From contig CALWIZ010000007.1 of the NCBI GenBank assembly GCA_944380885.1, forward strand, positions 5,122-69,121: DNA of 64,000 bases. The letters are read 5' to 3'. Made by a program: the position numbers and the translations under genes. Position 1 is the stretch's first letter, and the number at the start of each line of letters is the position of its first letter. The notes under the pieces are model-generated. The model was not told the origin of the DNA, did not search any database, and saw only the letters and a program-made list of their open reading frames with translations. Below are positions 31,157-46,112 of the stretch, one piece after another. This DNA comes from an uncultured Clostridia bacterium (GTDB lineage Bacteria > Bacillota > Clostridia > Oscillospirales > Acutalibacteraceae).

Positions 31157-31164
31157 CATTTTGC

Positions 31165-31263
31165 AATTCAGGGAGCTTGATGAAACTCAGGCTGAGAGGG
31201 AGTCCGTCTTTTGACTATGGCTCCGACCTGCGACCTGATACGGATAATGCCGTCGTAGGGAAA
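31165..31263 (+). promoter_or_regulatory. TPP (thiamine pyrophosphate) riboswitch aptamer
   Basis: Conserved cores ...GGGAGC...CTGAGAGGG... and ...ACCTGATACGGATAATGCCGTCGTAGGGA. It is followed by its own terminator and then thiT. Confidence 0.85.
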
Positions 31264-31279
31264 TACACAAAATGTATTG

Positions 31280-31370: not shown

Positions 31371-31955
31371 ATGGAAATGAAAAACAAACCTGTTTACAAA
31401 CTTGCTTTAAGCGCTATATTTGTGGCGCTCGCTACCGGACTCAGCTTTATTAAGATATGGGAAATGCCGCTCGGCGGCTCAATAACGCTTCTCAGCATGC
31501 TTCCTATCGTTATGATATCTATTATGCTGGGACTTAAATGGGGAATAGGCAGCGCGTTCGTTTATTCGCTTATCCAGCTTATGTTCGGTATATCTGAGGT
31601 GCTTAGCTGGGGTCTTACGCCTGTAATGCTTGTCGGCACAATGCTGCTCGATTACATACTTCCCTTTACGGTTCTCGGCGTGGCGGGAGCGTTTGTAAAA
31701 AAAGGCTACGCGGGAATCTGCGCCGGCGTTGTTCTTGCACTCGGACTGAGATTTTTAAGCCATTTTCTGTCAGGTGTTATTATTTTCCGGAATCTTGAGC
31801 AGTTTAAACTTTTCGGAACACTTTTTGCCAACCGTCCGTATCTTTATTCCTTCTGCTACAACGGATTTTATATGATTCCGGAAATAATCATCACCACAAT
31901 AGCTGCTGTAATTCTTTTCCGTATGTCTTCGGTCAAGAAGCTGATGGCGCAGTAA
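31371..31955 (+). CDS. thiT: ECF-type thiamine transporter S component ThiT
   Basis: 194 aa, 6 TM. N-terminus KLALSAIFVALATGLSFIKIWEMPLGGSITLLSMLPI. RBS AAGGAGAG. Sits downstream of the TPP riboswitch. Confidence 0.8.
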   Translation: MEMKNKPVYKLALSAIFVALATGLSFIKIWEMPLGGSITLLSMLPIVMISIMLGLKWGIGSAFVYSLIQLMFGISEVLSWGLTPVMLVGTMLLDYILPFTVLGVAGAFVKKGYAGICAGVVLALGLRFLSHFLSGVIIFRNLEQFKLFGTLFANRPYLYSFCYNGFYMIPEIIITTIAAVILFRMSSVKKLMAQ

Positions 31956-33473: not shown

Positions 33474-33502
33474 TTGACATAATAAAAAAGCGGTGTTATA
33501 CT
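33474..33502 (+). promoter_or_regulatory. sigma-A promoter (TTGACA-17-TATACT) for T-box leader 1
   Basis: TTGACA at 33474-33479 and TATACT at 33497-33502. Confidence 0.65.
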
Positions 33503-33508
33503 ATTTGA

Positions 33509-33783
33509 AAATGATAAAGGCATTGACGAAGACGGTCCGGAATGACTGCTTTAAGAGAGCCGGTGGTTGGTGTGAACCGGCAGTACGTATTCCAGAGTGA
33601 CCCATCGCTTCCGAGCCGGAGCACTGAATTCGCAAGACAGTAGGTTCTCCCGTGATTGCTGCGTAAAGGCATAGGGATTGTTGGATCCCAAGAGGTGGCG
33701 GCTTTCATGCCGCAATTTGAGTGGTACCGCGGATGTATTTTCACACCCGTCTCAAGGATTTCTTGAGACGGGTGTTTTTATTT
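33509..33783 (+). promoter_or_regulatory. T-box riboswitch leader 1 (inferred specifier AUC, Ile)
   Basis: GA/K-turn TTGACGAAGA paired with CTTCCGAGCC. AG bulge AAGAGAG. Distal loop GGTTGGTGTGAA. T-box sequence AATTTGAGTGGTACCGCGG at 33713-33731. Terminator CACCCGTCTCAAG-5 nt-CTTGAGACGGGTG plus TTTTT at 33744-33779. Candidate specifier ATC at 33604-33606, followed by G and then the CTTC strand of the basal helix. Confidence 0.8.
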
Positions 33784-33803
33784 CACAAAGGAGGCTTTTA
33801 AAA

Positions 33804-36074
33804 ATGGCAACAGTATCAACCGACAGTCAGCTTAAAGAGGTTGCGGTGAGAATCCGCGAAATGCGTGAGATATGCGGCATTTCCGAGGCCGATATGGCGC
33901 AGAAGACGGAGGTAAGCGTAGAAGAATACAGACTTTACGAGGAAGGAAAAAAGGATTTTCCTTTCACCTTTATACATAAATGCTCGCTGGCGTTCGGCAT
34001 AGGCATTACCGACCTGCTTGAAGGACAGAGCGCTCATCTTTCTTCCTACACTGTTACCCGCAAGGGTCATGGACAGCAGACCGCCAAAGAGGACGGAATA
34101 GAAATACAGAACTTAGCCCCGCTTTTCAGAAAAAAGATAGCCGAGCCGTACTGGGTAAGATATGAGTATCATTCCGAGCTTCAGGATAAGCCGATACATC
34201 TTACAAATCATTCCGGTCAGGAGTTCGACTTTGTAATGAGCGGCAGGCTCAAGGTTCAGATAGGTGAAAATGTTGAGTATCTGAGCGAGGGAGACAGTAT
34301 CTATTACAACTCTTCCACGCCTCACGGAATGATAGCCGTTGACGGCAGGGACTGCCTGTTTGTTGCTGTGGTGCTCCCCGGTGAGGACGTAAAGGAGGAC
34401 ATAATCCGCGGAACGATAGTTTCGGCTCATTCGGGAACAAAGGAATATGTTTCCTCAAAGTTCATCGATACGGTTGAGGACGAGAACGGCGTGCTTCAGA
34501 AGATAGACTTCAAAAATGAGGATAAGTTCAATTTTGCTTTTGACATTGTCGATGCGATAGCCAAAAAGGAACCCGACAAGCTGGCGATGCTCCATATAGA
34601 TAAAAACAAGACTGAGCGCAGATTTACCTTTAACGATATGAAGCGTGCCTCCAACCAGTGTGCCAACTATTTCAAGTCGCTTGGCATAAAGAAGGGCGAC
34701 AGGGTAATGCTGGTACTTAAAAGGCACTATCAGTTCTGGTACGCAATACTGGCGCTTCACAAGCTCGGAGCGATAGCGATACCCGCTACCAACCTTCTGC
34801 AGCAGCACGACTTTGAGTACCGCTTCAACGCGGCGGACGTAAGCGCCATAGTCTGCACCGCCGACGGGGACGCAGCGCATCAGGTGGATCTGGCGGAGCC
34901 TTCAAGCCCGACGCTTAAGACCAAGATACTCGTAGGCGGCAAGCGTGACGGCTGGCACGACTTTGACGAGGAGTTTCCGCTGTTCAGCGCGCATTTCTAC
35001 CGCACCGAGGACACCGCCTGCGGCGACGACCTTATGCTTATGTTCTTTACATCAGGAACCACGGGATACCCGAAGATAGCCGCCCACAGCTACAAATACG
35101 CGCTCGGACACTACATAACCGCCAAATACTGGCACGGTGTTGACGAAAACGGATTGCACTTTACAATATCCGAGACCGGCTGGGGCAAGGCGCTCTGGGG
35201 CAAGCTGTACGGTCAGTGGCTCTGCGAGGGCGCGGTATTCACCTACGACTTTGACCGCTTTGACGCGTCGGATATACTCCCTATGTTTGCGAAATACAAC
35301 ATCACAACCTTCTGCGCTCCGCCGACAATGCTGCGCATGATGATAAAGGAGGACATATCAAAGTACGACCTTTCGTCGATAAAGCATATGACCACAGCAG
35401 GCGAGGCGCTTAACCCGGAGGTTTACAGGCAGTTTGAAAAGGCGACCGGCCTTCAGATAATGGAGGGCTTCGGTCAGACCGAGCTGACGCTCGTTATTGC
35501 AAACCTTATGGGTAATCCCCACAAACTCGGATCGATGGGTATGCCTACCCCGCTTTACGATGTCGATATACTTGATCCTGACGGAAATCCGGTACCTGAC
35601 GGCGAGACCGGCGAAATAGTTGTAAAGACCTCAGAGAAAGTTCCCTGCGGCCTATTCAAGGGCTATTACAAGAACGAGGAAAAGACAAAAGAGGTATGGC
35701 ACGACGGTTATTATCACACCGGAGATACCGCGTGGAGAGACGAGGACGGCTTTTACTGGTATGTCGGCCGTGTGGACGATGTTATTAAGTCATCGGGCTA
35801 CCGCATAGGGCCGTTCGAGATAGAGAGCGTAATAATGGAGCTTCCTTATGTGCTTGAGTGCGGAGTTTCCGCTGCGCCCGACGAGATACGCGGTCAGGTG
35901 GTAAAGGCGAGTATCGTGCTTGTAAAGGGCACCGAGGGTACGGAAGAGCTTAAAAAGGAAATCCAGAACTATGTAAAGCAGCACACCGCGCCTTACAAGT
36001 ATCCGAGGATAGTAGAGTTCAAGACTGAGCTGCCTAAGACCATAAGCGGAAAGATCCAGCGTAATAAGCTGTAA
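33804..36074 (+). CDS. tri-domain fusion: XRE-type HTH + cupin + AMP-forming (medium/short-chain) acyl-CoA synthetase, paralog 1
   Basis: Start at ATG 33804 after AAAGGAGG; the track start 33678 lies inside the T-box leader. HTH: LKEVAVRIREMREICGISEADMAQKTEVSVEEYRLYEEG. Cupin: HSGQEFDFVMSGRLKVQIGE...GDSIYYNSSTPHGM. Adenylation motifs MFFTSGTTGYPK, YHTGDTAW, SGYRIGPFEIES, and the C-terminal PKTISGKIQR. Confidence 0.85.
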   Translation: MATVSTDSQLKEVAVRIREMREICGISEADMAQKTEVSVEEYRLYEEGKKDFPFTFIHKCSLAFGIGITDLLEGQSAHLSSYTVTRKGHGQQTAKEDGIEIQNLAPLFRKKIAEPYWVRYEYHSELQDKPIHLTNHSGQEFDFVMSGRLKVQIGENVEYLSEGDSIYYNSSTPHGMIAVDGRDCLFVAVVLPGEDVKEDIIRGTIVSAHSGTKEYVSSKFIDTVEDENGVLQKIDFKNEDKFNFAFDIVDAIAKKEPDKLAMLHIDKNKTERRFTFNDMKRASNQCANYFKSLGIKKGDRVMLVLKRHYQFWYAILALHKLGAIAIPATNLLQQHDFEYRFNAADVSAIVCTADGDAAHQVDLAEPSSPTLKTKILVGGKRDGWHDFDEEFPLFSAHFYRTEDTACGDDLMLMFFTSGTTGYPKIAAHSYKYALGHYITAKYWHGVDENGLHFTISETGWGKALWGKLYGQWLCEGAVFTYDFDRFDASDILPMFAKYNITTFCAPPTMLRMMIKEDISKYDLSSIKHMTTAGEALNPEVYRQFEKATGLQIMEGFGQTELTLVIANLMGNPHKLGSMGMPTPLYDVDILDPDGNPVPDGETGEIVVKTSEKVPCGLFKGYYKNEEKTKEVWHDGYYHTGDTAWRDEDGFYWYVGRVDDVIKSSGYRIGPFEIESVIMELPYVLECGVSAAPDEIRGQVVKASIVLVKGTEGTEELKKEIQNYVKQHTAPYKYPRIVEFKTELPKTISGKIQRNKL

Positions 36075-36094
36075 AAGTATTTTATTTAAAAATA

Positions 36095-36123
36095 TTGACA
36101 AATTCCTTTTGTTGTGATAAGAT
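36095..36123 (+). promoter_or_regulatory. sigma-A promoter (TTGACA-17-TAAGAT) for T-box leader 2
   Basis: TTGACA at 36095-36100 and TAAGAT at 36118-36123, beginning 21 nt after the paralog-1 stop. Confidence 0.55.
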
Positions 36124-36129
36124 GTATTA

Positions 36130-36418
36130 CATCAAAATTCAAAGGCGCTGACGAAGAGGATACGGCTGATGCTTTTAAAGAGAGATAACGGTTGGTGTAA
36201 GTTATCAGAGAAAGGCCTGTATTTGTAGCTTCCGAGCCGGGAGGAAGAAAGTTTTTAACGAGTAGAACCTCCCCGTGACTGCTGCGTAAAGGCATAGGAA
36301 TTGTTTGATTCCAAGAGTGGCGGCTTTTCTGCCGCAATTTGAGTGGTACCGCGGGCTACCGATATATATGTATTTCGGCGCTCGTCTCAAAGTCATAACT
36401 TTGGGACGAGCGTTTTTT
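36130..36418 (+). promoter_or_regulatory. T-box riboswitch leader 2 (inferred specifier GUA, Val)
   Basis: Same architecture as leader 1. CTGACGAAGAGG paired with CTTCCGAGCC. AAAGAGAG. GGTTGGTGTAA. T-box sequence AATTTGAGTGGTACCGCGG at 36336-36354. Terminator CGCTCGTCTCAAAG-6 nt-CTTTGGGACGAGCG plus TTTTTT at 36379-36418. Candidate specifier GTA at 36225-36227, followed by G and CTTC. Confidence 0.8.
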
Positions 36419-36452
36419 CGTCCCGAAAGGCTGAAGCCGAGGAGGAAAAAGT

Positions 36453-38744
36453 ATGAAACAGATAACAGGGCTTGATTACAAAATCAAGGAAATGGCGGCG
36501 CGCATAAGGGAGTTGCGCGAGATTGAGGGACTTTCGGTTGCCGATATGGCACAAAAGACCGCCGTAAGCGAGGAGGAGTACACCGCCTGTGAAAACGGCG
36601 AGAGCGATTTAAACTTCGCTTTTATATACCGCTGCGCGCTTGCGTTCAATGTAGATGTCACCGATATTATAGAGGGTCAAAGCCCGACCCTGCGCTCCTA
36701 TACCGTAACGAGAAAGGGCGAGGGTCAGCGCATTGAAAAGGCGCACGGAATGACCTATTATAACCTTGCCGCCGCCTTCCAGAACAGGATAGCCGAGCCG
36801 CTTTACGTTAAAAGCGCTTACAGTGAGGAGGCGCAGCACCGTGATATTGAGCTTACCACTCATGCCGGTCAGGAATGTGACCTTATAATAGAGGGAAAGC
36901 TCAAGGTTCAGGTGGGCGAGCATAAGGAAATTTTAGGTCCGGGGGACAGTATTTATTACGACAGTTCAACTCCGCACGGAATGATAGCCGTTGACGGCAA
37001 GGACTGTATATTCTACGCGATAGTGCTTAACCCGACCGGTGAGCCTATCCCCGAGCTTGAGGACGAAAAGCCGGTCGCCCAGAATGTGGCGCCCCACACG
37101 CCGGACACCAAGAACAGAATATACAGAAAATACACCGAGGTCACAAAGGACGAAAACGGAACACCGGTTTCTATAAAGTTCAAGAATACCGAGCATTTCA
37201 ACTTCGCTTTTGACCTTGTGGACGCTCTGGCAGATAAGGACCCTGACAAGCTGGCGATGCTGCATATCTCAAAGGATAAGACCGAGCGCAGGCTGACCTT
37301 CAAGGATATGAAAAAGGCTTCCAATCAGTGCGCCAACTATTTCAAGTCCTTAGGCATAAGAAAAGGCGACCGCGTAATGCTGGTGCTTAAAAGGCATTAC
37401 CAGTTCTGGTACGCGATACTGGGGCTTCACAAGCTGGGAGCGATAGCGATACCCGCCACAAACCAGCTTCAGGAGCACGATTTTGAGTACCGCTTCAAAA
37501 CCGCCGGCGTTTCGGCGATAATCTGCACAGCCGACGGTGATACAGCTCATCAGGCGGATATAGCGGCGGCAAACTGTCCTGAGCTTAAGCATAAGCTGAT
37601 AGTAAACGGCACGCGTGAGGGCTGGCGCCCGTTTGACGAGGAGTACACCCTTTACAGCACCCATTACAACCGTCCGGACGACGCCCCCGGAGGGGACGAC
37701 CTTATGCTGATGTTCTTTACGTCGGGAACAAGCGGATACCCGAAAATCGCCGCTCACAACTATAAATATGCCCTCGGACATTTCCACACGGCGAAATACT
37801 GGCACAACGTCGATCCTGACGGACTGCACTTTACCATTTCGGATACCGGCTGGGCAAAGGCGATGTGGGGCAAGCTGTACGGTCAGTGGCTCTGCGAGGC
37901 GGCTACTTTCGTTTACGATTTCGACCGGTTTGACGCGGCGGATATTCTTCCGATGTTCGCGAAATACAATATAACCACCTTCTGCGCGCCGCCTACGATG
38001 CTCAGAATGATGATAAAGCAGGATATCTCAAAGTACGATTTCTCGTCTGTTAAGCATATGACCACAGCGGGCGAGGCGCTGAACCCCGAGGTTTACAGGC
38101 AGTTTGAAAAGGCCACGGGTCTTCAGATACTGGAGGGCTTCGGACAGAGCGAAAGCACCATGATAATCGGCAATATGACCGGCGCACCGCATAAGATAGG
38201 CTCAATGGGCAAGCCGGCGCCGATTTACGATGTGGATATAGTGGATTCCGACGGCAACCCGGTACCTCCCGGAGAGACCGGTGAAATAGTCATAAACATT
38301 AAAAACGGTTATCCATGCGGTCTTGCCGTAGGTTATTACGGCGACGAAGAAAAGACAAAGGAAACATGGCGCGACGGATATTACCACACCGGCGACACCG
38401 CGTGGAAGGACGAGGACGGCTTTTACTGGTACGTTGGCCGCGTGGACGATGTTATCAAGTCTTCGGGCTACCGCATAGGGCCGTTCGAGATAGAAAGCGT
38501 TATAATGGAGCTTCCTTATGTGCTTGAGTGCGGCGTTTCGGCGGCTCCCGACCCGGTGCGCGGTCAGGTGGTAAAGGCGAGCATAGTTCTTGTTGACGGA
38601 ACAGAGGGCACTGAGGAGCTTAAAAAGGAAATCCAGAATTACGTAAAGCAGCATACCGCGCCTTACAAGTATCCGCGTATAGTAGTATTCAGAGACAGTC
38701 TTCCTAAAACTACCAGCGGAAAAATTCAGCGTAATAAGTTATAA
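36453..38744 (+). CDS. tri-domain fusion: XRE-type HTH + cupin + AMP-forming acyl-CoA synthetase, paralog 2
   Basis: 763 aa, collinear with paralog 1. The C-terminal halves are nearly identical in places (ILPMFAKYNITTFCAPPTMLRMMIK, YHTGDTAW.DEDGFYWYVGRVDDVIKSSGYRIGPFEIESVIMELPYVLECGVSAAPD). The inter-domain linker and mid-region are more divergent. Confidence 0.85.
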   Translation: MKQITGLDYKIKEMAARIRELREIEGLSVADMAQKTAVSEEEYTACENGESDLNFAFIYRCALAFNVDVTDIIEGQSPTLRSYTVTRKGEGQRIEKAHGMTYYNLAAAFQNRIAEPLYVKSAYSEEAQHRDIELTTHAGQECDLIIEGKLKVQVGEHKEILGPGDSIYYDSSTPHGMIAVDGKDCIFYAIVLNPTGEPIPELEDEKPVAQNVAPHTPDTKNRIYRKYTEVTKDENGTPVSIKFKNTEHFNFAFDLVDALADKDPDKLAMLHISKDKTERRLTFKDMKKASNQCANYFKSLGIRKGDRVMLVLKRHYQFWYAILGLHKLGAIAIPATNQLQEHDFEYRFKTAGVSAIICTADGDTAHQADIAAANCPELKHKLIVNGTREGWRPFDEEYTLYSTHYNRPDDAPGGDDLMLMFFTSGTSGYPKIAAHNYKYALGHFHTAKYWHNVDPDGLHFTISDTGWAKAMWGKLYGQWLCEAATFVYDFDRFDAADILPMFAKYNITTFCAPPTMLRMMIKQDISKYDFSSVKHMTTAGEALNPEVYRQFEKATGLQILEGFGQSESTMIIGNMTGAPHKIGSMGKPAPIYDVDIVDSDGNPVPPGETGEIVINIKNGYPCGLAVGYYGDEEKTKETWRDGYYHTGDTAWKDEDGFYWYVGRVDDVIKSSGYRIGPFEIESVIMELPYVLECGVSAAPDPVRGQVVKASIVLVDGTEGTEELKKEIQNYVKQHTAPYKYPRIVVFRDSLPKTTSGKIQRNKL

Positions 38745-38776
38745 TTTTTTTAAATAGTATTATAAAGGGAGGAAGT

Positions 38777-39439
38777 ATGGATTACAAACGACTGACCCTC
38801 ATCTGCGGCCATTACGGCAGCGGAAAGACAAACGTCGCCGTAAATCTTGCGTTTGACCTTAAAAGGCAGTATAATAAAACATCGATAGCGGACCTTGATA
38901 TAGTTAATCCCTACTTCCGCACAAAGGACAGCATGGAAGAGCTTGAAAGGGCGGGAATAGAGCTTATCTGCTCGGATTACGCCGGAACGAATGTGGATAT
39001 TCCGGCTCTGCCTCAGCAGATGTATTCGATAACCGACGACCGCTCAAAAAAGGTGATACTCGATATAGGGGGAGACGACCGCGGCGCTCTGGCGCTTGGG
39101 AGGCTTGCTCCGGCGATACTTGCCGAAAACGATTACGAGATGCTTATGGTGATAAACCGGTTCCGTCCGCTCACAAGGGACGCGCGTTCCACGGTAGAGG
39201 TAATGCGTGAAATCGAGTACGCGGGGGGCATACCCTTTACGGGGCTTGTAAACAACTCAAATCTGGGCGAGGAGACGACAGCGGAGGATATTCTTTCTTC
39301 GGTTACTTATGCCAATGAGGTATCACGGCTTTCCTCACTGCCGGTAATTTGCACTACCGTACACGACACGGTTTATGCCGCTGTCGCGGGTAAAATAAAT
39401 AATTTATTCCCGTTAAAGCTCCAGCCGAAAATAGGCTGA
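38777..39439 (+). CDS. small SIMIBI/MinD-ParA-like P-loop NTPase of unknown role
   Basis: N-terminal deviant Walker A ICGHYGSGKTNVAVNLA, then DLDIVNPYF and ILDIGGDD. 220 aa. No CxC metal motif of CooC type. RBS GGGAGGAAG. Confidence 0.6.
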   Translation: MDYKRLTLICGHYGSGKTNVAVNLAFDLKRQYNKTSIADLDIVNPYFRTKDSMEELERAGIELICSDYAGTNVDIPALPQQMYSITDDRSKKVILDIGGDDRGALALGRLAPAILAENDYEMLMVINRFRPLTRDARSTVEVMREIEYAGGIPFTGLVNNSNLGEETTAEDILSSVTYANEVSRLSSLPVICTTVHDTVYAAVAGKINNLFPLKLQPKIG

Positions 39440-39465
39440 GGCGGGGAAATTCAAACAAAGGAGAC

Positions 39466-39678
39466 TTGAAAATGGCTAAGCTGACATTCAAAACCGATAA
39501 CTGCAAGGGCTGCGGACTGTGCGTAGACGCCTGTCCGAAGCATGTTCTGCAGTTGGCGGCGGACAAGATCAACAAAAAAGGACATCATCCGGTCGAGGCG
39601 GTAAAGGAAGACGAGTGCATCGCCTGCGCTTTCTGCGCCACAATGTGCCCCGACTGCATAATAAAAATAGAGAGGTAA
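39466..39678 (+). CDS. 2-oxoacid:ferredoxin oxidoreductase delta subunit (2x[4Fe-4S] ferredoxin)
   Basis: 70 aa with CKGCGLCVDACP and CIACAFCATMCP. Confidence 0.85.
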   Translation: MKMAKLTFKTDNCKGCGLCVDACPKHVLQLAADKINKKGHHPVEAVKEDECIACAFCATMCPDCIIKIER

Positions 39679-39687
39679 GTGAAAAAT

Positions 39688-40755
39688 ATGTCAGAAAAGG
39701 TTTTGATGAAGGGCAACGAGGCGCTGGCGGAAGCCGCCATAATCGCCGGCTGCCGTCATTATTTCGGTTATCCCATAACCCCGCAGACCGAGGTTGCCGC
39801 CTATATGGCAAAGAGAATGCCGAAAATCGGCGGAACATTTTTACAGGCTGAAAGCGAGATTGCCGCAATAAATATGGTTTACGGCGTATCCTCGACCGGC
39901 CACAGGGTCATGACATCGTCTTCAAGCCCAGGAATTTCGCTTAAGGGCGAGGGACTTTCCTATCTTGCCGGTTCAGATCTTCCGGCGCTTGTAATCAACG
40001 TACAGCGCGGCGGCCCGGGACTCGGCGGAATACAGCCGTCGCAGTCGGACTATTTTCAGGCTACAAAGGGCGGCGCACACGGCGACTTCCATATGATAGT
40101 TCTGGCGCCCGCTTCGGTTCAGGAAATGGCTGACCTTACCGTAAAGGGCTTTGAGCTTGCCGATAAATACCGTATGACCTCTATGGTTCTGGCGGACGGT
40201 ACTATGGGTCAGATGATGGAACCTGTTTCGCTTGAATACGATATAAAGCCTGCCCCCGAAAAGCCGTGGGCGACTACGGGAACAAAAATGCAGAGAGAGC
40301 ATAACATTATAAATTCGCTTTCACTTGTTCCCGAAGAGCTTGAGAGGTTAAATATAGAGCGCTACAAGAGATATGACGAGGTCGAGAAAAATGAGGTCAT
40401 GTACGAGGAGTATATGATGGACGACGCCGAGATCTGCATAGCGGCGTTCGGTATTGCCGCCCGTGTCTCAAAGAACGCGATTACCGAGGCGAGAAGACAG
40501 GGCATAAAGGCCGGTATGATAAGACCGATAACCCTCTGGCCGTTCCCGAAGGCGCCGTTTAAAAAAGCGGCTAAGAGCGTAAAGCAGTTTATTTCTGTTG
40601 AGCTTTCAATGGGACAGATGATAGAGGACGTTCGTCTGGCGACCGAATGCAGAGTGCCCGTAACTCTCTGCAACCGCGTGGGCGGTATGATACCGTCGCC
40701 TGAGATGGTACTTGAGGCTATTAAGGAAGCCGCGAAAAACGGAGGTGCAAGATAA
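39688..40755 (+). CDS. vorB: 2-oxoacid:ferredoxin oxidoreductase alpha subunit (VorB-like)
   Basis: Start taken at ATG 39688 (MSEKVLMKGNEALAEAAIIAGC...); GTG 39679 is an alternative. The ~355-aa size and N-terminal KGNEA..EAAI.AG pattern fit the KorA/VorB/PorA family. Confidence 0.8.
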   Translation: MSEKVLMKGNEALAEAAIIAGCRHYFGYPITPQTEVAAYMAKRMPKIGGTFLQAESEIAAINMVYGVSSTGHRVMTSSSSPGISLKGEGLSYLAGSDLPALVINVQRGGPGLGGIQPSQSDYFQATKGGAHGDFHMIVLAPASVQEMADLTVKGFELADKYRMTSMVLADGTMGQMMEPVSLEYDIKPAPEKPWATTGTKMQREHNIINSLSLVPEELERLNIERYKRYDEVEKNEVMYEEYMMDDAEICIAAFGIAARVSKNAITEARRQGIKAGMIRPITLWPFPKAPFKKAAKSVKQFISVELSMGQMIEDVRLATECRVPVTLCNRVGGMIPSPEMVLEAIKEAAKNGGAR

Positions 40756-41510
40756 TGGTAGTATTTGAAAAACCACACGCGCTGACAGATGTGCCGATGC
40801 ACTACTGCCCGGGCTGTACGCACGGTATAGTTCACCGCCTTGTCGCCGAGGTTATAGACGAGTTAGGGATAGAGGGAAAGACGGTTGGAATAGCGCCGGT
40901 CGGCTGTTCGGTTATGGCGTACAATTACTTTAACTGCGATATGATAGAGGCGGCTCACGGCCGCGCTCCGGCAGTCGCCACAGGCGTTAAGCGTGCCGAG
41001 CCGGACAATATCGTGTTTACATATCAGGGCGACGGAGATCTTGCGTCAATCGGTACCGCCGAAACGGTACATTCCGCCGCGAGAAACGAGAATATAACCG
41101 TTATATTCATAAACAACGCGATTTACGGTATGACCGGCGGACAGATGGCTCCTACCTCTCTGCCCGGTCAGGTGACCCAGACCTCTCCCTACGGCAGGGA
41201 CGTAAAGCTCTGCGGCTACCCGGTAAAGGTCTGCGAAATGCTTTCACAGCTTGACGGACCGGAATACCTTGAGCGTGTTGCGGTAAATAACGTAAAGAAT
41301 ATAAAGAACGCTAAAAAGGCAATTAAAAAAGCGTTCCAGAATCAGATAGACGGCAAGGGATTTTCGCTTGTCGAGGTAATCTCAAGCTGCCCGACAAACT
41401 GGGGTCTTACTCCGCAGAACGCGCTCAAATGGATAGACGAAAAAATGATACCATATTACCCGCTGGGCGTTTATAAAGACCGCTCTGCCGCCAAGGAGGA
41501 AACGAAATGA
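40755..41510 (+). CDS. 2-oxoacid:ferredoxin oxidoreductase beta subunit (TPP-binding)
   Basis: YCPGCTHGIVHR, GDGDLASIG, NNAIYGMTGGQ. The start overlaps the alpha-subunit stop. Confidence 0.85.
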   Translation: MVVFEKPHALTDVPMHYCPGCTHGIVHRLVAEVIDELGIEGKTVGIAPVGCSVMAYNYFNCDMIEAAHGRAPAVATGVKRAEPDNIVFTYQGDGDLASIGTAETVHSAARNENITVIFINNAIYGMTGGQMAPTSLPGQVTQTSPYGRDVKLCGYPVKVCEMLSQLDGPEYLERVAVNNVKNIKNAKKAIKKAFQNQIDGKGFSLVEVISSCPTNWGLTPQNALKWIDEKMIPYYPLGVYKDRSAAKEETK

Positions 41511-42052
41511 GTACAACACAGTTTTTGTTTGCCGGATTCGGCGGTCAGGGTATACTCTTCGCCGGAAAATTCGCGGCGTATAAGGGACTTATCGGGGAAA
41601 AGCAGGTGAGCTGGCTGCCGTCATACGGACCCGAAATGCGCGGTGGCACAGCGAGCTGCAGCGTTATTATAAGCGATGAGCCGGTAGGCTCTCCTATCGT
41701 TTCAAAGCCTGATGTGCTTATTGCCATGAACCTGCCCTCGCTTGACAGGTACGAAAGCGCTGTTGCCGTGGGAGGAACCATTTTTGTTGATTCCACTCTT
41801 ATCGACCGCAAGGTTGAGCGTGACGATGTCGCGGTTTACTATGTCCCGGCGACCCGTCTTGCAAGCGATAACGGTATGCCGACACTTGCCAATATGATAC
41901 TTATGGGAAATATTCTTAAGGTAATGAATGATTTTGACGAGGAAAGCGTTACCGAAGCACTTAAAAAGGTTGTTTCCGCGAAGCATGCGGATATGCTTGA
42001 TGTAAACCTTAAGGCGCTTAAAATAGGCGCTGAATATAAAGAGGAAGTGTAA
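41507..42052 (+). CDS. 2-oxoacid:ferredoxin oxidoreductase gamma subunit
   Basis: 181 aa, [14 protein letters not shown]...[10 protein letters not shown]. 4-nt overlap with the beta-subunit gene. Confidence 0.85.
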
Positions 42053-42055
42053 GTC

Positions 42056-43120
42056 ATGGAAATCAAGATTGTAAAAACCGATTCTCCCAAGGAAAAACCC
42101 GACAGCAGCACATTAGGCTTCGGAAAAATTTTCACCGACCATATGTTTATTATGGATTATTCGCGTGAGAAAGGTTGGCACGACGCGAGGATAGTACCGT
42201 TTGGCAATATTTCTCTGCACCCGGCGTCAACCGTACTGCATTACGGCTCCGAAATTTTTGAGGGTCTTAAAGCGTACCGCCGCGCGGACGGGAAGGTTCA
42301 GCTTTTCAGACCGATTGAAAATATCCGCAGAATGAATAATTCCGCTGAAAGACTCTGCCTGCCGCAGATAGACGAAAAGGACGCTATGCAGATACTTGAG
42401 ACTTTTGTTTCGCTTGAGCAGGACTGGACGCCGTCAGCTGAGGGAACTTCCCTTTACCTGCGCCCATTTATGTTCGGAAACGATGAGTCGCTGGGCGTTC
42501 ACGCGGTGCACAACGCGACTTATATGATTATCGCGTCTCCTGTCGGAAGCTATTATAAAGAGGGCATAAACCCCGTAAAGATTATGATAGAGGACGAGGA
42601 CGTGCGCGCGGTAAGAGGAGGCACAGGCTACGCCAAGTGCGGCGGAAACTATGCTGCCAGCAACCGCGCCGGCGAGAGAGCCGAGCAGAAGGGTTATTCT
42701 CAGGTGCTCTGGCTTGACGGCGTTGAGCGCAAGTATATAGAGGAAGTCGGCGCTATGAACGTTATGTTCAAAATCGGCGGCGAGATTGTAACCCCGAAGC
42801 TCACGGGTTCAATTCTTCCGGGAATCACCAGAAAGTCCTGCATTGAGGTGCTTAAAGACGAGGGCTATACCGTAAACGAGAGACTTTTAAGCGTTGACGA
42901 GCTTGGAGAGGCGCTTAAGAACGGAACGCTTGAGGAGGCATGGGGCTGCGGTACCGCGGCGGTCGTCTCCCCGATAGGCGAGCTTTGCTACAAGGACGTT
43001 AAATACACTATCAACAACGGCGAGATCGGCAAGGTCACACAGCATCTTTATGATACTCTCACCGGAATACAGTGGGGCAAAATCGAGGATAAGTACGGCT
43101 GGACATATCCGATTAAGTAA
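42056..43120 (+). CDS. ilvE: branched-chain amino acid aminotransferase
   Basis: 354 aa fold-type IV pattern: FTDHMF, LHYGSEIFEGLKAYR, LYLRPFMFG, GTGYAKCGGNYAAS, GITRKS. Confidence 0.9.
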   Translation: MEIKIVKTDSPKEKPDSSTLGFGKIFTDHMFIMDYSREKGWHDARIVPFGNISLHPASTVLHYGSEIFEGLKAYRRADGKVQLFRPIENIRRMNNSAERLCLPQIDEKDAMQILETFVSLEQDWTPSAEGTSLYLRPFMFGNDESLGVHAVHNATYMIIASPVGSYYKEGINPVKIMIEDEDVRAVRGGTGYAKCGGNYAASNRAGERAEQKGYSQVLWLDGVERKYIEEVGAMNVMFKIGGEIVTPKLTGSILPGITRKSCIEVLKDEGYTVNERLLSVDELGEALKNGTLEEAWGCGTAAVVSPIGELCYKDVKYTINNGEIGKVTQHLYDTLTGIQWGKIEDKYGWTYPIK

Positions 43121-43127
43121 CTAAAAA

Positions 43128-43163
43128 AAGCGTATCCGTTTTTTTGCGGATACGCTTTTATTT
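43128..43163 (+). terminator. rho-independent terminator after ilvE
   Basis: AAGCGTATCCG-loop TTTTTTTG-CGGATACGCTT followed by a T-rich tail. The same GCGTATCCG/CGGATACGC stem recurs after htpG. Confidence 0.85.
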
Positions 43164-43180
43164 GTCGAGAAACCTTGAAC

Positions 43181-43421
43181 GGAAAGCAAATTGTATAAAC
43201 GTAATTTCAGTCAAACCTTTTTGGAAGGTTTGCGTATTCTATCTAAAGGCGGAGCCTTTAGCCTCTTTCCGCAGAAAGCGGAACTTTTTTGTCTTATAAA
43301 ACTCAGGAAAGGGTGAAAAAACAGTCCGGTGGACTGTTCCTGTGGGAACCCCTCCTCGTTGGTTTCCTTTTAACTGACTATTTATTTGTGCAAGTTTTTA
43401 ATTGGAGATGACTTTCTTGAC
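43181..43421. repeat. multi-hairpin intergenic repeat, full-length copy A (MITE-like)
   Basis: Aligns with 61467-61706 over its whole length and with 51354-51455 over the left half. Hairpins: CAAACCTTTTTGGAAGGTTTG (43212-43232), TAAAGGCGGAGCCTTTA (43244-43260), TTCCGC-AGAAA-GCGGAA plus T6 (43267-43290), A-run plus ACAGTCC-GGT-GGACTGT (43315-43337). Confidence 0.8.
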
Positions 43422-43495
43422 ACTCTCAAGCACCCGAAAGGGTGCTTTTGTCGTTAAACGCAGCTATAAAATTTTTATATGTATACTCTTGAGCA

Positions 43496-44002
43496 TTAAG
43501 GTGTAATCGTAACATTTTTGAAAACCGCCGAAAATGAGCCGTTTATACTCTCTGCCGAAATCGGAAGTCCCGTTGCTCCGAGGTAAAGGTTGTATTCTGC
43601 GTCCTGCGCCTCGCCTGAAACGTATATGAGGTCCGCGTCGGCAGACGCTTTTGTTTCGGGGTCGAAAGTATCGGCAAGTATCGCATAAAGCCTGCCGCAC
43701 ATTCCGCTCTCGTCAAGCGGAGAAATGCTGTAAGGATATTCAAGCTCGTCAAATTCTGCATGTACTTCACTGCCACTGAAAATAAGGGTAAGCCCCTCTA
43801 CATTTTCAGGCGATATCAGCTCAAACCGAGTCTCGCCATCCTTTGAAACACTGACCTCGGCGGAGCAGCACTCGTTGTAAAGCGTTATATCCGCCGTAAA
43901 GGTTATGCCTTTTGTATAAGGCGTGATATCCGAACCGGAAGCGCCGCAGGCACAAAGCAGCATCGCAGATAAAGCGGCTAAAAAAGCTGTGATTTTCCTC
44001 AA
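43496..44002 (-). CDS. lipoprotein of unknown function
   Basis: TTG start after GAGGGAG. Signal plus lipobox MRKITAFLAALSAMLLCAC|GAS. 168 aa. Last gene of the nnr unit. Confidence 0.65.
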   Translation of the reverse strand: MRKITAFLAALSAMLLCACGASGSDITPYTKGITFTADITLYNECCSAEVSVSKDGETRFELISPENVEGLTLIFSGSEVHAEFDELEYPYSISPLDESGMCGRLYAILADTFDPETKASADADLIYVSGEAQDAEYNLYLGATGLPISAESINGSFSAVFKNVTITP

Positions 44003-44018
44003 GCTGAAAGACTCCCTC

Positions 44019-45467
44019 TTACAGCTCCTTTATCATATCAGACGGCAGCATCGCACGTTCGCCGCGTTTGGCGGCGGCCTTGTCGCCTGCCTGCCCGTGA
44101 AGATACACCCCGGCCTTTGCCGCATCATCAGCGGAAAATCCCTGAGCCAGCAGGGAAACTATTATGCCCGAAAGCAGGTCGCCGCTGCCGCCCGTCGCCA
44201 TACCGGGATTGCCTGTCAGGTTGAAAAATATTTCTCCTTCAGGAGTAGCAATAATGGTATTCGCGCCTTTGAGCACCAGTACGCAGCCGTATTCCGCCGC
44301 GAATTTGCGTGCTGCCCCCACTCGGTCAGCCTCGATATCCGTGACGGTAAGCGAGCACAGTCTTGCCATTTCGCCGGGGTGCGGCGTCAGAATGACAGGA
44401 GCTTTGCGTTTCTTAATAATATCTATGCTGCCGCACAGGGCGTTTATGCCATCTGCATCGATTACAAGCGGGATTTTTGATTTTTCGCAGAGGTTTTTTA
44501 CTATTTCTGCGGTATCACGATTATTGCCGAGACCGCAGCCGACAAGCACCGCAGAACAGCCGGCAAGTATTTTTTCGTAATCTATTCCGTCAGGCGGCAG
44601 CGTGCCTTTTTCGGTCTGCTTTAAGGGGACGCATACGGCTTCCGGAACCGAAGCGGTAAACGGAGCGTATATACCGTCGCACAAAACCGCCTTGAGTATC
44701 CCGACGCCGCTTCTGAGCGCTGCCTTTGCCGCGAGTATCGCCGCGCCCGCCATTCCGTAGCTGCCGCAGAACATGACCGCCGTGCCGAAGCTGCCCTTGT
44801 GGGAATTGCGGCGGCGTTTTTCAAAGACCGGCTTTTCAGTTGTAAGATAACTGTAAGAGACCGGCTCTGCCCCGATATCCGCCACCTGTACCTCGCCGCA
44901 CATATCGCTGCCGGCGGGCAGTACAAGACACGGCTTTAATGCTATGAATGTGACAGTAAGATCGGCTTTGACTGCCGTGCCGAGGATTTTTCCGCTGTCC
45001 GACTCGACTCCGCTCGGCACATCTACCGAGATTTTAACGCCGCTTGCGGTGTTAATTGCCTTTACTGCTTCCGCGGCGGCACCCTCAAGAGGACGGTCAA
45101 GACCTATTCCGAAAAGAGCGTCCACAGTTATGTCGGTATTTTCAGGTATAATTTTTCCTTTTTTCGCGAGGTACAGCTTGCCGTAATAATAAGCGGCGTT
45201 TTCGGTTTTGGGCGCGCCCAGCGGTGTTACCACCGTTACGTCGGCCCCGTGCTGAGCGAGTATTTCGGCGATAACGCAGCCGTCGCCCCCGTTGTTGCCT
45301 TTGCCGCATACTACCGCTATTCTTTTTCCGGCGCAGCCGTATTTCCGCATAATTATTTCAGCCGCGGCGCTGCCGGCGCGGAACATAAGCTCCCTTAAAG
45401 AAAAAGCGCCGCTTTTTACGGCGTTTTCCTCTGACTCTCTTATCAAAGCCACGGATAATACCTTCAA
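44019..45467 (-). CDS. nnr: bifunctional NAD(P)H-hydrate repair enzyme (epimerase/ADP-dependent dehydratase)
   Basis: 482 aa. YjeF-N part VVCGKGNNGGDGCV, C-terminal carbohydrate-kinase part GNPGMATGGSGDLLSG. TTG start after GGGAGGGAG. Confidence 0.85.
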   Translation of the reverse strand: MKVLSVALIRESEENAVKSGAFSLRELMFRAGSAAAEIIMRKYGCAGKRIAVVCGKGNNGGDGCVIAEILAQHGADVTVVTPLGAPKTENAAYYYGKLYLAKKGKIIPENTDITVDALFGIGLDRPLEGAAAEAVKAINTASGVKISVDVPSGVESDSGKILGTAVKADLTVTFIALKPCLVLPAGSDMCGEVQVADIGAEPVSYSYLTTEKPVFEKRRRNSHKGSFGTAVMFCGSYGMAGAAILAAKAALRSGVGILKAVLCDGIYAPFTASVPEAVCVPLKQTEKGTLPPDGIDYEKILAGCSAVLVGCGLGNNRDTAEIVKNLCEKSKIPLVIDADGINALCGSIDIIKKRKAPVILTPHPGEMARLCSLTVTDIEADRVGAARKFAAEYGCVLVLKGANTIIATPEGEIFFNLTGNPGMATGGSGDLLSGIIVSLLAQGFSADDAAKAGVYLHGQAGDKAAAKRGERAMLPSDMIKEL

Positions 45468-45481
45468 AACGGCTCCCTCCC

Positions 45482-45994
45482 TTATTTGAACGCGCTGTTC
45501 GCTATGAATTTAGGAACAAATTTCACTACAGCCGAACGCACACGCTCGTCCGGAGCGAAAACAAGATATATCGTTCCTTTGCCTTCGGCTGACGATACCA
45601 TAAGATACGCGTCCGGATCGTCTGTATTGCAGGCGACGGTAAGCTCCTTCGGATTTACCGAGGCTATCTGCGAAGGATTGAATTTATCGATTCTCGAAAC
45701 CGTCTGAAGTTCAAAGGAAAGCACACGCTTGCGGGAGCTTTTGCTTATTATTTTATCTATATCCATCGTGCCGTTGGTTACAATATACTCATACTCTATA
45801 TTGAAGCGGCAGCTTAGCTTGTACGCTCCGAAAATCACACCTGCCATAAGCAGAAAGGCAAAAGCGGCGAGGTATCCGCTGAACATGAAGAGCAGAAAGC
45901 AAAGCACAAAGGCGAGAAACCAGATACCGATTACGGCGGCGATATCCTTTCCCGTTTTCCTTATGGAAATTATCTGTTCAAAAAAAGTATCCAT
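45482..45994 (-). CDS. two-TM membrane protein of unknown function
   Basis: Start taken at MDTFFEQIISIRK (45994). Two adjacent TM helices, then a soluble tail. Family not recognised with certainty. Confidence 0.55.
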   Translation of the reverse strand: MDTFFEQIISIRKTGKDIAAVIGIWFLAFVLCFLLFMFSGYLAAFAFLLMAGVIFGAYKLSCRFNIEYEYIVTNGTMDIDKIISKSSRKRVLSFELQTVSRIDKFNPSQIASVNPKELTVACNTDDPDAYLMVSSAEGKGTIYLVFAPDERVRSAVVKFVPKFIANSAFK

Positions 45995-46112
45995 GTAATA
46001 TCCCCTCAACAAAGCAAATATAATTATATATACATTATACACCAAAGCTCATTGTACTTGCAATAGATTTTGTTTTAGTATATAATAAATTTACCTTTTA
46101 TTAACAAGTGAG

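Follow-up and report, generated by a model that had tools for sequence, protein, structure and literature searches.

Branched-chain fatty acids are converted into branched-chain amino acids by reductive carboxylation in rumen and gut anaerobes, a physiology that has been recognized for decades. In the anaerobic salvage route of the rumen literature, a branched-chain acid is activated to its acyl-CoA, the acyl-CoA is carboxylated reductively to a 2-oxoacid, and the 2-oxoacid is transaminated; the requirement of such anaerobes for branched-chain fatty acids matters for animal nutrition as well as for the cultivation of gut bacteria. Rumen methanogens also use branched-chain volatile fatty acids, for the synthesis of Ile and Leu (PMC10658910). 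The locus considered here belongs to an uncultured Clostridia bacterium of the Acutalibacteraceae and lies in a stretch of 64,000 nucleotides of contig CALWIZ010000007.1 (positions 5,122 to 69,121), the whole of which is referred to as the window. It very probably encodes a salvage route from branched-chain fatty acids to branched-chain amino acids under T-box control, and its two acyl-CoA synthetase (ACS) genes, ACS1 and ACS2, encode ligases that begin with an XRE-type helix-turn-helix (HTH) domain and a cupin. From sequence evidence, we lean towards reading it as a salvage locus in which this HTH-cupin module binds a metal and a ligand and acts on the ligase, not on DNA.

The described ligases closest to these proteins have no such module. 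MacsMa of Methanosarcina acetivorans prefers 2-methylbutyrate, has Trp259 in its substrate pocket, and adenylates many acids without carrying them to the thioester (PMC10455477); it resembles the ACS part of the window proteins in full alignment and in adenylation motifs, but it is a stand-alone protein of ~560 aa, without XRE-cupin module and, being archaeal, without T-box. The best-scoring named family is MbcS of Staphylococcus aureus, a ligase with isobutyrate (iC4) and 2-methylbutyrate (aC5) as preferred substrates (PMC13584741), which serves membrane fatty-acid synthesis rather than amino-acid synthesis and likewise lacks the N-terminal module. T-box leaders elsewhere govern aminoacyl-tRNA synthetases, de novo biosynthesis, and transporters. 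Those of the window have the same canonical Stem I, specifier loop, T-box sequence, and terminator, and read AUC and GUA, ordinary specifiers for Ile and Val, but they precede fatty-acid-CoA ligases and a 2-oxoisovalerate:ferredoxin oxidoreductase (VOR).

The module itself can be compared with both regulators and enzymes. XRE-cupin factors such as ErfA, PsdR, and PauR, together with the uncharacterised structure 1Y9Q, share the two-domain architecture and size of the stand-alone form of the module, and the factors’ genes, like those of that form, adjoin enzyme genes. XRE-cupin proteins dimerise, bind palindromes beside their own genes, and repress adjacent enzyme genes locally (PMC7901475). 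The present subfamily differs in having an acidic HTH, co-transcription or fusion with one particular enzyme, and an invariant triad of putative metal ligands, and palindromic sites like those of the factors were not detected in the promoters of its orthologs. HppE, Psf4, HEPD, and MPnS have a similar two-domain fold, an XRE-like helical domain plus a cupin, and are mononuclear non-haem iron enzymes. The helical domain of HppE presumably does not bind DNA, and its segment corresponding to the recognition helix is acidic, as in the window family. However, enzymes of this type carry out oxidative phosphonate chemistry, have no attached ligase, and come from aerobic actinomycetes and pseudomonads. 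BirA, PutA, and NadR, in which a DNA-binding domain is covalently joined to a metabolic enzyme (adenylate-forming in BirA as well), serve as an analogy only; they are not homologous to the window proteins and have defined operators, which were not found in the promoters inspected here.

The two fused genes lie in tandem, with the following parts (coordinates are positions in the window):
33804-36074, + strand: gene 1 (ACS1), 756 aa from ATG, with the ribosome-binding site AAGGAGG upstream; XRE-like HTH at ~33828-34025, cupin at ~34161-34373, variable linker, MacsMa-type acyl-CoA synthetase at ~34503-36071
36453-38744, + strand: gene 2 (ACS2), 763 aa; HTH at 36480-36677 (residues 10-75), then a connector, cupin at 36813-37031 (residues 121-193) bearing H137/E141/H175, linker at 37032-37172, ACS at 37173-38741

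In both proteins, the XRE-HTH, cupin, AMP-binding, and AMP-binding_C domains are contained in a single unbroken frame. In Pfam scans, AMP-binding was matched with E 3e-67 (227 bits) in gene 1 and E 6e-65 (220 bits) in gene 2 against a cut-off of 29.9, and AMP-binding_C with E 1e-19 (72 bits) and E 1e-20 (75 bits) against 24.5, while Cupin_2 exceeded its cut-off in both (E 1.5e-10 and E 1.8e-11). The HTH of gene 2 clears the cut-off (HTH_19, 33.2 bits vs 30.2), whereas that of gene 1 is slightly under (HTH_19, 22.0 vs 30.2; HTH_3, 21.8 vs 23). The tri-domain fusion that a first-pass annotation had proposed for both genes is thus real by open reading frames and Pfam scan, with the HTH of gene 1 alone below cut-off. 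For gene 2, AlphaFold2 predicts a five-helix XRE domain in residues 6-74 (helices 6-25, 29-35, 40-47, 55-65, and 69-74; model pLDDT 88), with block pLDDT of 88-98 across residues 11-70. End to end, the two proteins are 71% identical (537/756), the identity amounting to 89% in the C-terminal ACS domain, 70% in the N-terminal adenylation domain, 60% in the cupin, 50% in the HTH, 45% in the connector, and 25% in the linker. It had been claimed that the paralogs are nearly identical towards the C terminus and diverge in the linker and the N-terminal part of the adenylation domain. This holds for the C-terminal domain and the linker, the most and the least alike parts, but HTH, connector, and cupin differ more than the N-terminal adenylation domain does.

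The fused frame recurs in more than 100 independent clusters at 90% identity and was confirmed in at least 584 stretches from the species-representative genomes of GTDB, many of the genomes having two copies. The architecture spans several hundred species-level Oscillospirales gut genomes; the carriers, from human, ruminant, horse, and deer guts, are nearly all labelled Acutalibacteraceae, Oscillospiraceae, Ruminococcaceae, or Eubacteriales. This distribution, a survey of which had been proposed at the outset, shows that neither a frameshift nor a misassembly gave rise to the fusion; an HTH-cupin frame separate from the ligase does exist, as the native state in related bacteria and not through a sequencing frameshift here. 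A recent tandem duplication was likewise rejected, because the ACS1/ACS2 pair with its distinct specifiers is syntenic in 70 of 80 species. Among these 80 loci, Vor genes lie downstream in 59, and most of the remainder are truncated contigs; locus L001 is the window’s own genome (a metagenome-assembled genome of an uncultured Clostridia bacterium). In a literature search, no paper with a functional characterisation of the fusion was found.

Each of the two genes stands behind its own promoter and T-box leader:
33474-33502, + strand: promoter 1, TTGACA, 17-nt spacer, TATACT, TG extended -10
33514-33757, + strand: T-box leader 1 (Rfam RF00230, 95.2 bits, E 1e-20)
33604-33606, + strand: specifier AUC (Ile) of T-box 1, read from the cmscan alignment and the sequence
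33743-33784, + strand: intrinsic terminator of T-box 1, 15-bp stem, then T-run
36095-36123, + strand: promoter 2, TTGACA, 17-nt spacer, TAAGAT, TG extended -10
36139-36392, + strand: T-box leader 2 (RF00230, 85.9 bits, E 3e-18, full-length model match)
36225-36227, + strand: specifier GUA (Val) of T-box 2
36377-36420, + strand: intrinsic terminator of T-box 2, 17-bp stem, then T-run

The gathering threshold of RF00230 is 93 bits, with leader 1 above and leader 2 below it, although a terminator and the conserved AGUGGUACCGCG motif are both present in leader 2. Both leaders are flanked by the strongest candidate promoters and terminators of the region, promoter 1 being the top promoter-like site of the scan (11/12 matches), and no terminator was found between the stop of gene 1 and promoter 2/T-box 2 (36074-36139). 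As specifier we took, in the covariance-model alignment, the three bases in front of the closing helix of the specifier loop; the frame of this rule was validated on an unrelated leader in locus L109, which reads UUC (Phe). When the leaders of orthologs from the 80 species were compared (59 for ACS1, 78 for ACS2), the T-box sequence was found in 58/59 and 76/78, respectively. By the structure-aware rule and manual inspection, the specifier is ATC in 56 of the 59 ACS1 leaders and GTA in 73 of the 78 ACS2 leaders, in which no alternative codon was read; the odd codons left over proved to be artefacts on inspection. The -35 box and the extended -10 are also kept, across 55 ACS1 and 71 ACS2 orthologous leaders. 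A literature search on T-box control of acyl-CoA synthetases returned nothing directly relevant.

Three variations on this arrangement were observed. In L029 (3499-8100) and L067 (634-5289), ACS2 begins 3 nt past the ACS1 stop and the second promoter and T-box are absent, so that both ligases would answer to the Ile leader alone. In L089 (3073-3331), a second T-box (85 bits) with an apparent UGG (Trp) specifier lies upstream of the Ile-controlled fused ligase. The Phe leader of L109 (2766-6004, - strand; 107 bits) precedes genes for a PaaK-like AMP-binding ligase, a small ACT-domain protein, and DAHP synthase, an operon that looks like an aromatic counterpart (phenylacetate to Phe) with the ACT protein in place of the HTH-cupin partner.

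Regarding the ligases, residues 241-761, which make up the ACS part, can be aligned over their full length with the MacsMa structure, PDB 3ETC (E 7e-185). Both proteins keep the core motifs TSGT[TS]GYPK, GQ[TS]E, YHTGD, GRVDD, and PKTxSGK, as well as the pocket Trp in ‘AKYW’, the equivalent of MacsMa Trp259. The top NCBIfam model is MbcS (NF047394), but at 452.3 and 437.4 bits the pair falls short of the 850 required for membership of that equivalog. Six positions in the 415-aa N-terminal domain of the ACS are paralog-specific (H326N, G468A, L471M, G483A, L570M, and A573G); they are mostly swaps between small and bulky residues, within the TGWxKAxWGKLY and GQ[TS]E segments, and would fit a preference for C5 in one copy and C4 in the other. 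ACS1, the Ile-controlled copy, is the more MacsMa-like. Most likely, gene 1 encodes a 2-methylbutyrate-CoA ligase and gene 2 an isobutyrate-CoA ligase, as predicted from homology and specifiers. One further fused protein, P0173 (758 aa), has degenerate adenylation motifs, FLQSYSYGMAKP, FHTGT, and NGVVIR, where the window proteins have FFTSGTSGYPK, YHTGD, and SGKIQR, and keeps the HTH-cupin and triad context; a metagenome scan for its genomic context gave a best match of 40% identity only. P0173 may be a catalytically dead, sensor-like derivative, a putative “pseudo-enzyme sensor” clade comprising this single unverified sequence.

Downstream of gene 2, the genes for the remaining steps of the route follow:
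38777-39439, + strand: P-loop NTPase, 220 aa, with weak CbiA/ParA/Mrp-like matches
39466-39678, + strand: VorD-like 2x[4Fe-4S] ferredoxin subunit, 70 aa
39679-40755, + strand: VOR alpha subunit/VorB (NF005507, 539 bits vs cut-off 399)
40755-41510, + strand: VOR beta subunit
41507-42052, + strand: VOR gamma subunit
42056-43120, + strand: IlvE, branched-chain amino acid aminotransferase (NF009897, 485 bits vs cut-off 307)
43126-43159: hairpin after ilvE

Gene 2 heads this operon of P-loop protein, VorDABC, and IlvE, and no terminator was found between it and the genes that follow. Pfam matched POR_N, PFOR_II, TPP_enzyme_C, and POR in the VOR reading frames and Fer4 in the adjacent one; with the VorB model above cut-off and the beta, gamma, and delta subunits present, the enzyme qualifies as a 2-oxoisovalerate:ferredoxin oxidoreductase. 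The P-loop NTPase is kept between ACS2 and vorD in most of the 80 loci and could be a maturation factor, or one for Fe-S or metal delivery, for VOR or for the cupin. Because ligase homology, Ile and Val specifiers, VOR, and IlvE come together, salvage of branched-chain fatty acids is the simplest reading of the locus, and the link to branched-chain amino acid metabolism suspected in the first-pass annotation is backed by the T-boxes, the VOR genes, and IlvE. Under this reading, gene 1 would be transcribed beyond its leader terminator only with uncharged tRNA-Ile (AUC), and gene 2 together with the P-loop gene, vorDABC, and ilvE only with uncharged tRNA-Val (GUA), such that amino-acid starvation would turn the route on. 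The ligase of gene 1 would then supply 2-methylbutyryl-CoA and that of gene 2 isobutyryl-CoA, which VOR, presumably running in the reductive direction, would carboxylate to the 2-oxoacids for transamination to Ile or Val by IlvE.

Evidence on the role of the module comes, in the first place, from its relatives. An exhaustive search with residues 1-246 returned few fused representatives and many stand-alone proteins of ~185-195 aa, 35-45% identical and aligned end to end. The contexts of 11 stand-alone genes from different branches and sources were inspected (L081, L084, L087, L090, L091, L092, L093, L103, L110, L111, and L112), and all 11 have a co-directional AMP-binding ligase gene (~550-630 aa) directly downstream, with a gap of at most 26 bp or an overlap, the two genes being co-transcribed throughout and in many cases translationally coupled; in L081, the separate ligase shares 51% identity with the ACS part of the fused proteins. 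Given this pairing, the window proteins represent the fusion of two genes that have long been closely coupled, and the module is no recent add-on. The split operons of L081, L087, and L111 also start with a T-box reading AUC, and the fused forms of L109 (from the large P0154 clade) and L089 likewise stand behind AUC T-boxes. The main fused clades cluster in a neighbour-joining tree without support values, as would fit a single fusion event with later duplication to give one copy under Ile control and one under Val control.

Two split loci are unusual. In L090, an HTH-cupin frame (8-667) is in frame with the C-terminal end of an upstream ligase (‘...EELPKTISNKIRR...’), and a separate ligase follows at 734-2404; on a single 2.4-kb metagenome contig, this may be a different topology (ACS~HTH-cupin) or an assembly error. 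Together with P0173, it hints at further fusion events, which are not claimed here. In L112 (1-6233), the split pair lies 24 bp downstream of an operon for DHQ synthase, EPSP synthase, chorismate synthase, and chorismate mutase/prephenate dehydratase, which suggests roles for some such pairs outside branched-chain amino acid (BCAA) synthesis.

Within the fused proteins, the module is under purifying selection. Conservation among orthologs is 0.64/0.77 for the HTH, 0.74/0.78 for the cupin, 0.75/0.81 for the ACS N-domain, and 0.38/0.59 for the linker. Of 20 paralog-specific positions, 14 fall in the module, among them residues in and around the cupin and connector, and none in the recognition helix; HTH helices 4-5 are almost invariant and also have paralog-specific residues. 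In the cupin, H137/E141/H175 (His-x3-Glu...His) are invariant in 164 of 164 sequences (62/62 ACS1, 68/68 ACS2, and 34/34 stand-alone) and align with the H-x-G-x-E-F...H pattern of HppE (SGHAGNEF...VPHA), whose positions we take to be the iron ligands of that enzyme. The triad is accordingly a candidate metal site, as far as alignment can suggest.

Whether the module regulates transcription was the question raised by the first-pass annotation, which had proposed a moonlighting enzyme-repressor: an XRE-cupin factor tethered to the ligase, in which the state of the enzyme or the cupin ligand controls DNA binding at its own locus or at other BCAA genes, in the manner of BirA, PutA, or NadR. The five-helix XRE fold, intact and confidently predicted, would suit such a protein, as would the HTH of gene 2 passing the Pfam cut-off and the purifying selection on the HTH. 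Adjacency to the ligase is also predicted by a repressor model, since known XRE-cupins repress neighbouring genes (PMC7901475), and the split form does adjoin its ligase. However, a search of 55 ACS1 and 71 ACS2 orthologous promoters by fixed-position information content, k-mer enrichment, and palindrome scoring revealed no operator. Among these 126 promoters, only the -35 box, the extended -10, and an A-tract are conserved; position-independent k-mers correspond solely to promoter elements, the T-box start, and the upstream coding end; and palindromes are barely above shuffled controls. Nor was a common element found in the split operons. The supposed regulator is itself behind a T-box or, in the split pairs of L112 and L091, inside an operon with no promoter region of its own. 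Moreover, the HTH is acidic in every group of sequences, with mean net charges of -6.4, -5.0, and -6.4, and that of the recognition helix is -2.4 to -3.1, with an S-x-E-[ED]-Y consensus at the helix start whose acidic E-[ED] pair is conserved, while exposed positions 40, 41, 44, and 45 of that helix vary among orthologs. In the same PDB alignments, DNA-binding XRE domains have net charges of 0, -2, and +1, and the HppE segment -4. An acidic, variable recognition helix is suggestive of an HTH without DNA-binding residues, as had been considered from the start, but falls short of proof; with an invariant triad and a profile match to HppE added, neither of them expected of a repressor, the HTH probably does not bind DNA. 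A moonlighting DNA-binding enzyme-regulator is, in our view, unlikely.

Less likely still is an auxiliary catalytic domain, in which the metal-bearing cupin would perform a second step coupled to the ligase and the XRE-like domain would play a structural part, as it does in HppE. The best Foldseek matches over both domains, besides 1Y9Q, are the enzymes HppE, Psf4, HEPD, and MPnS (E ~1e-14 to 1e-9, probability 1.0, TM 0.45-0.50), HppE itself with E ~1e-14, TM ~0.47, and ~18-20% identity. The family profile likewise matches HppE over both domains (E 2e-7), and 1Y9Q with E 3e-8, and the triad has the 2-His-1-Glu facial pattern in all 164 sequences. The step could be an isomerisation or the hydrolytic editing of straight-chain acyl-adenylates or acyl-CoAs, for which MacsMa, in adenylating acids that it does not carry to the thioester (PMC10455477), gives a rationale, the gut being rich in acetate, propionate, and butyrate. 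However, the known pathway requires no further chemical step, and beyond the three metal ligands no catalytic residues are matched at the low identity to HppE. MacsMa (PMC10455477) and MbcS (PMC13584741) are active without such a module, which makes it accessory to catalysis. As the carriers are strict anaerobes, HppE-type oxidative chemistry is implausible, and the module is kept out of an HppE-like family because Fe(II)/oxidative phosphonate catalysis is unexpected in an anaerobic context. A purely structural role, in which the module drives oligomerisation, stability, or complex formation of the ligase (e.g. with VOR) and has no specific ligand, would suit the dimerisation of XRE-cupin proteins (PMC7901475) and the highly conserved HTH helices 4-5 with their paralog-specific residues, as at a protein-protein interface, but it is very improbable, as an invariant in-barrel triad surrounded by paralog-specific residues is hard to explain without a metal or ligand.

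The balance of evidence favours a metal- and ligand-binding partner of the ligase over a classical repressor, on account of the obligate pairing or fusion, the shared riboswitch, the invariant triad, the paralog-specific residues of cupin and connector, the lack of an operator in the promoters searched, and the acidic, variable helix. As a ligase partner, the metal-loaded cupin would bind a small molecule and tune or assist the ligase, and the XRE-like helical domain would be a structural or oligomerisation element, as in HppE. The ligand would most plausibly be the end product of the pathway (Ile/Val) or its 2-oxoacid, the module thus adding fast, paralog-specific control over the slower control by the T-box. 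Allosteric sensing of Ile/Val or their 2-oxoacids is the most economical proposal, with a possible parallel, by analogy, in the Phe operon of L109, where a PaaK-like ligase is paired with an ACT-domain protein. The idea, already voiced in the first-pass annotation, that the cupin is an allosteric or ligand domain would be compatible with all of this evidence.

Several points weigh against the ligase-partner reading. Net charge discriminates weakly, the genuine repressor DdrO having -2, and both the intact XRE fold under selection and the local repression exerted by known XRE-cupins have been mentioned above; an operator could be located at another place in the genome, or could co-vary with the variable helix, thereby escaping footprinting. 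HppE chemistry requires O2 or H2O2, and the triad may hold a different metal or merely a ligand. In the full-length AlphaFold2 model, which is poor (pLDDT 50.5, pTM 0.37; shallow alignment), the packing of module and ligase is unreadable. On the side of the pathway, the substrate assignment draws solely on the T-box specifiers and on homology to 3ETC and MbcS. In addition, gene 1 lacks dedicated Vor and IlvE genes, so Ile synthesis would need read-through, leakiness, or independent induction of the Val-controlled operon, or genes elsewhere.

The ANL ligase, the T-box, VOR, and the XRE-cupin fold are all of known kinds. A dedicated XRE-cupin partner or fusion of a branched-acid ligase, as well as paralog-specific Ile/Val T-box control of a fatty-acid salvage route, appear to be undescribed. 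All genes for the route (ligase, VOR, IlvE) are present at the locus and widely conserved, and its regulatory logic is explicit, one ligase paralog being placed under an Ile T-box and its sister under a Val T-box. Substrate assignment and regulation can thus be tested directly across hundreds of Oscillospirales species, most of them uncultured. More tentatively, the subfamily annotated as “XRE family / helix-turn-helix transcriptional regulators” might, as a whole, contain no transcription factors at all and instead serve branched-chain carboxylate-CoA ligases as an obligate regulatory subunit that contains a metal and gates the enzyme on sensing its cognate amino acid or 2-oxoacid. If so, a regulator fold would have given rise to a new class of domain for enzyme regulation, present in fused form among the Acutalibacteraceae and other related Oscillospirales. 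Together with T-boxes specific for the amino acid, it would control the conversion of isobutyrate and 2-methylbutyrate to Val and Ile in gut anaerobes. The “transcriptional regulator” annotation of a large protein subfamily is probably misleading. A module acting as an enzyme subunit would be a clean case of a DNA-binding fold recruited for enzyme control, and one that does bind DNA would make a new bifunctional enzyme-repressor like BirA or PutA.

Two further features of the surroundings were noted. G+C content is ~0.50-0.52 over 34000-46000 of the window, which covers the ACS, VOR, and IlvE genes and their downstream neighbours, compared with 0.40-0.45 over the first 34 kb; this may reflect the composition of highly expressed genes or a different origin. 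Upstream, at 31159-31278, lies a TPP riboswitch (60 bits, above gathering score), followed by a gene for a Thia_YuaJ/ThiT-type thiamine transporter (31371-31955), a pair that is ordinary in itself, yet notable beside the locus of a TPP-dependent VOR.

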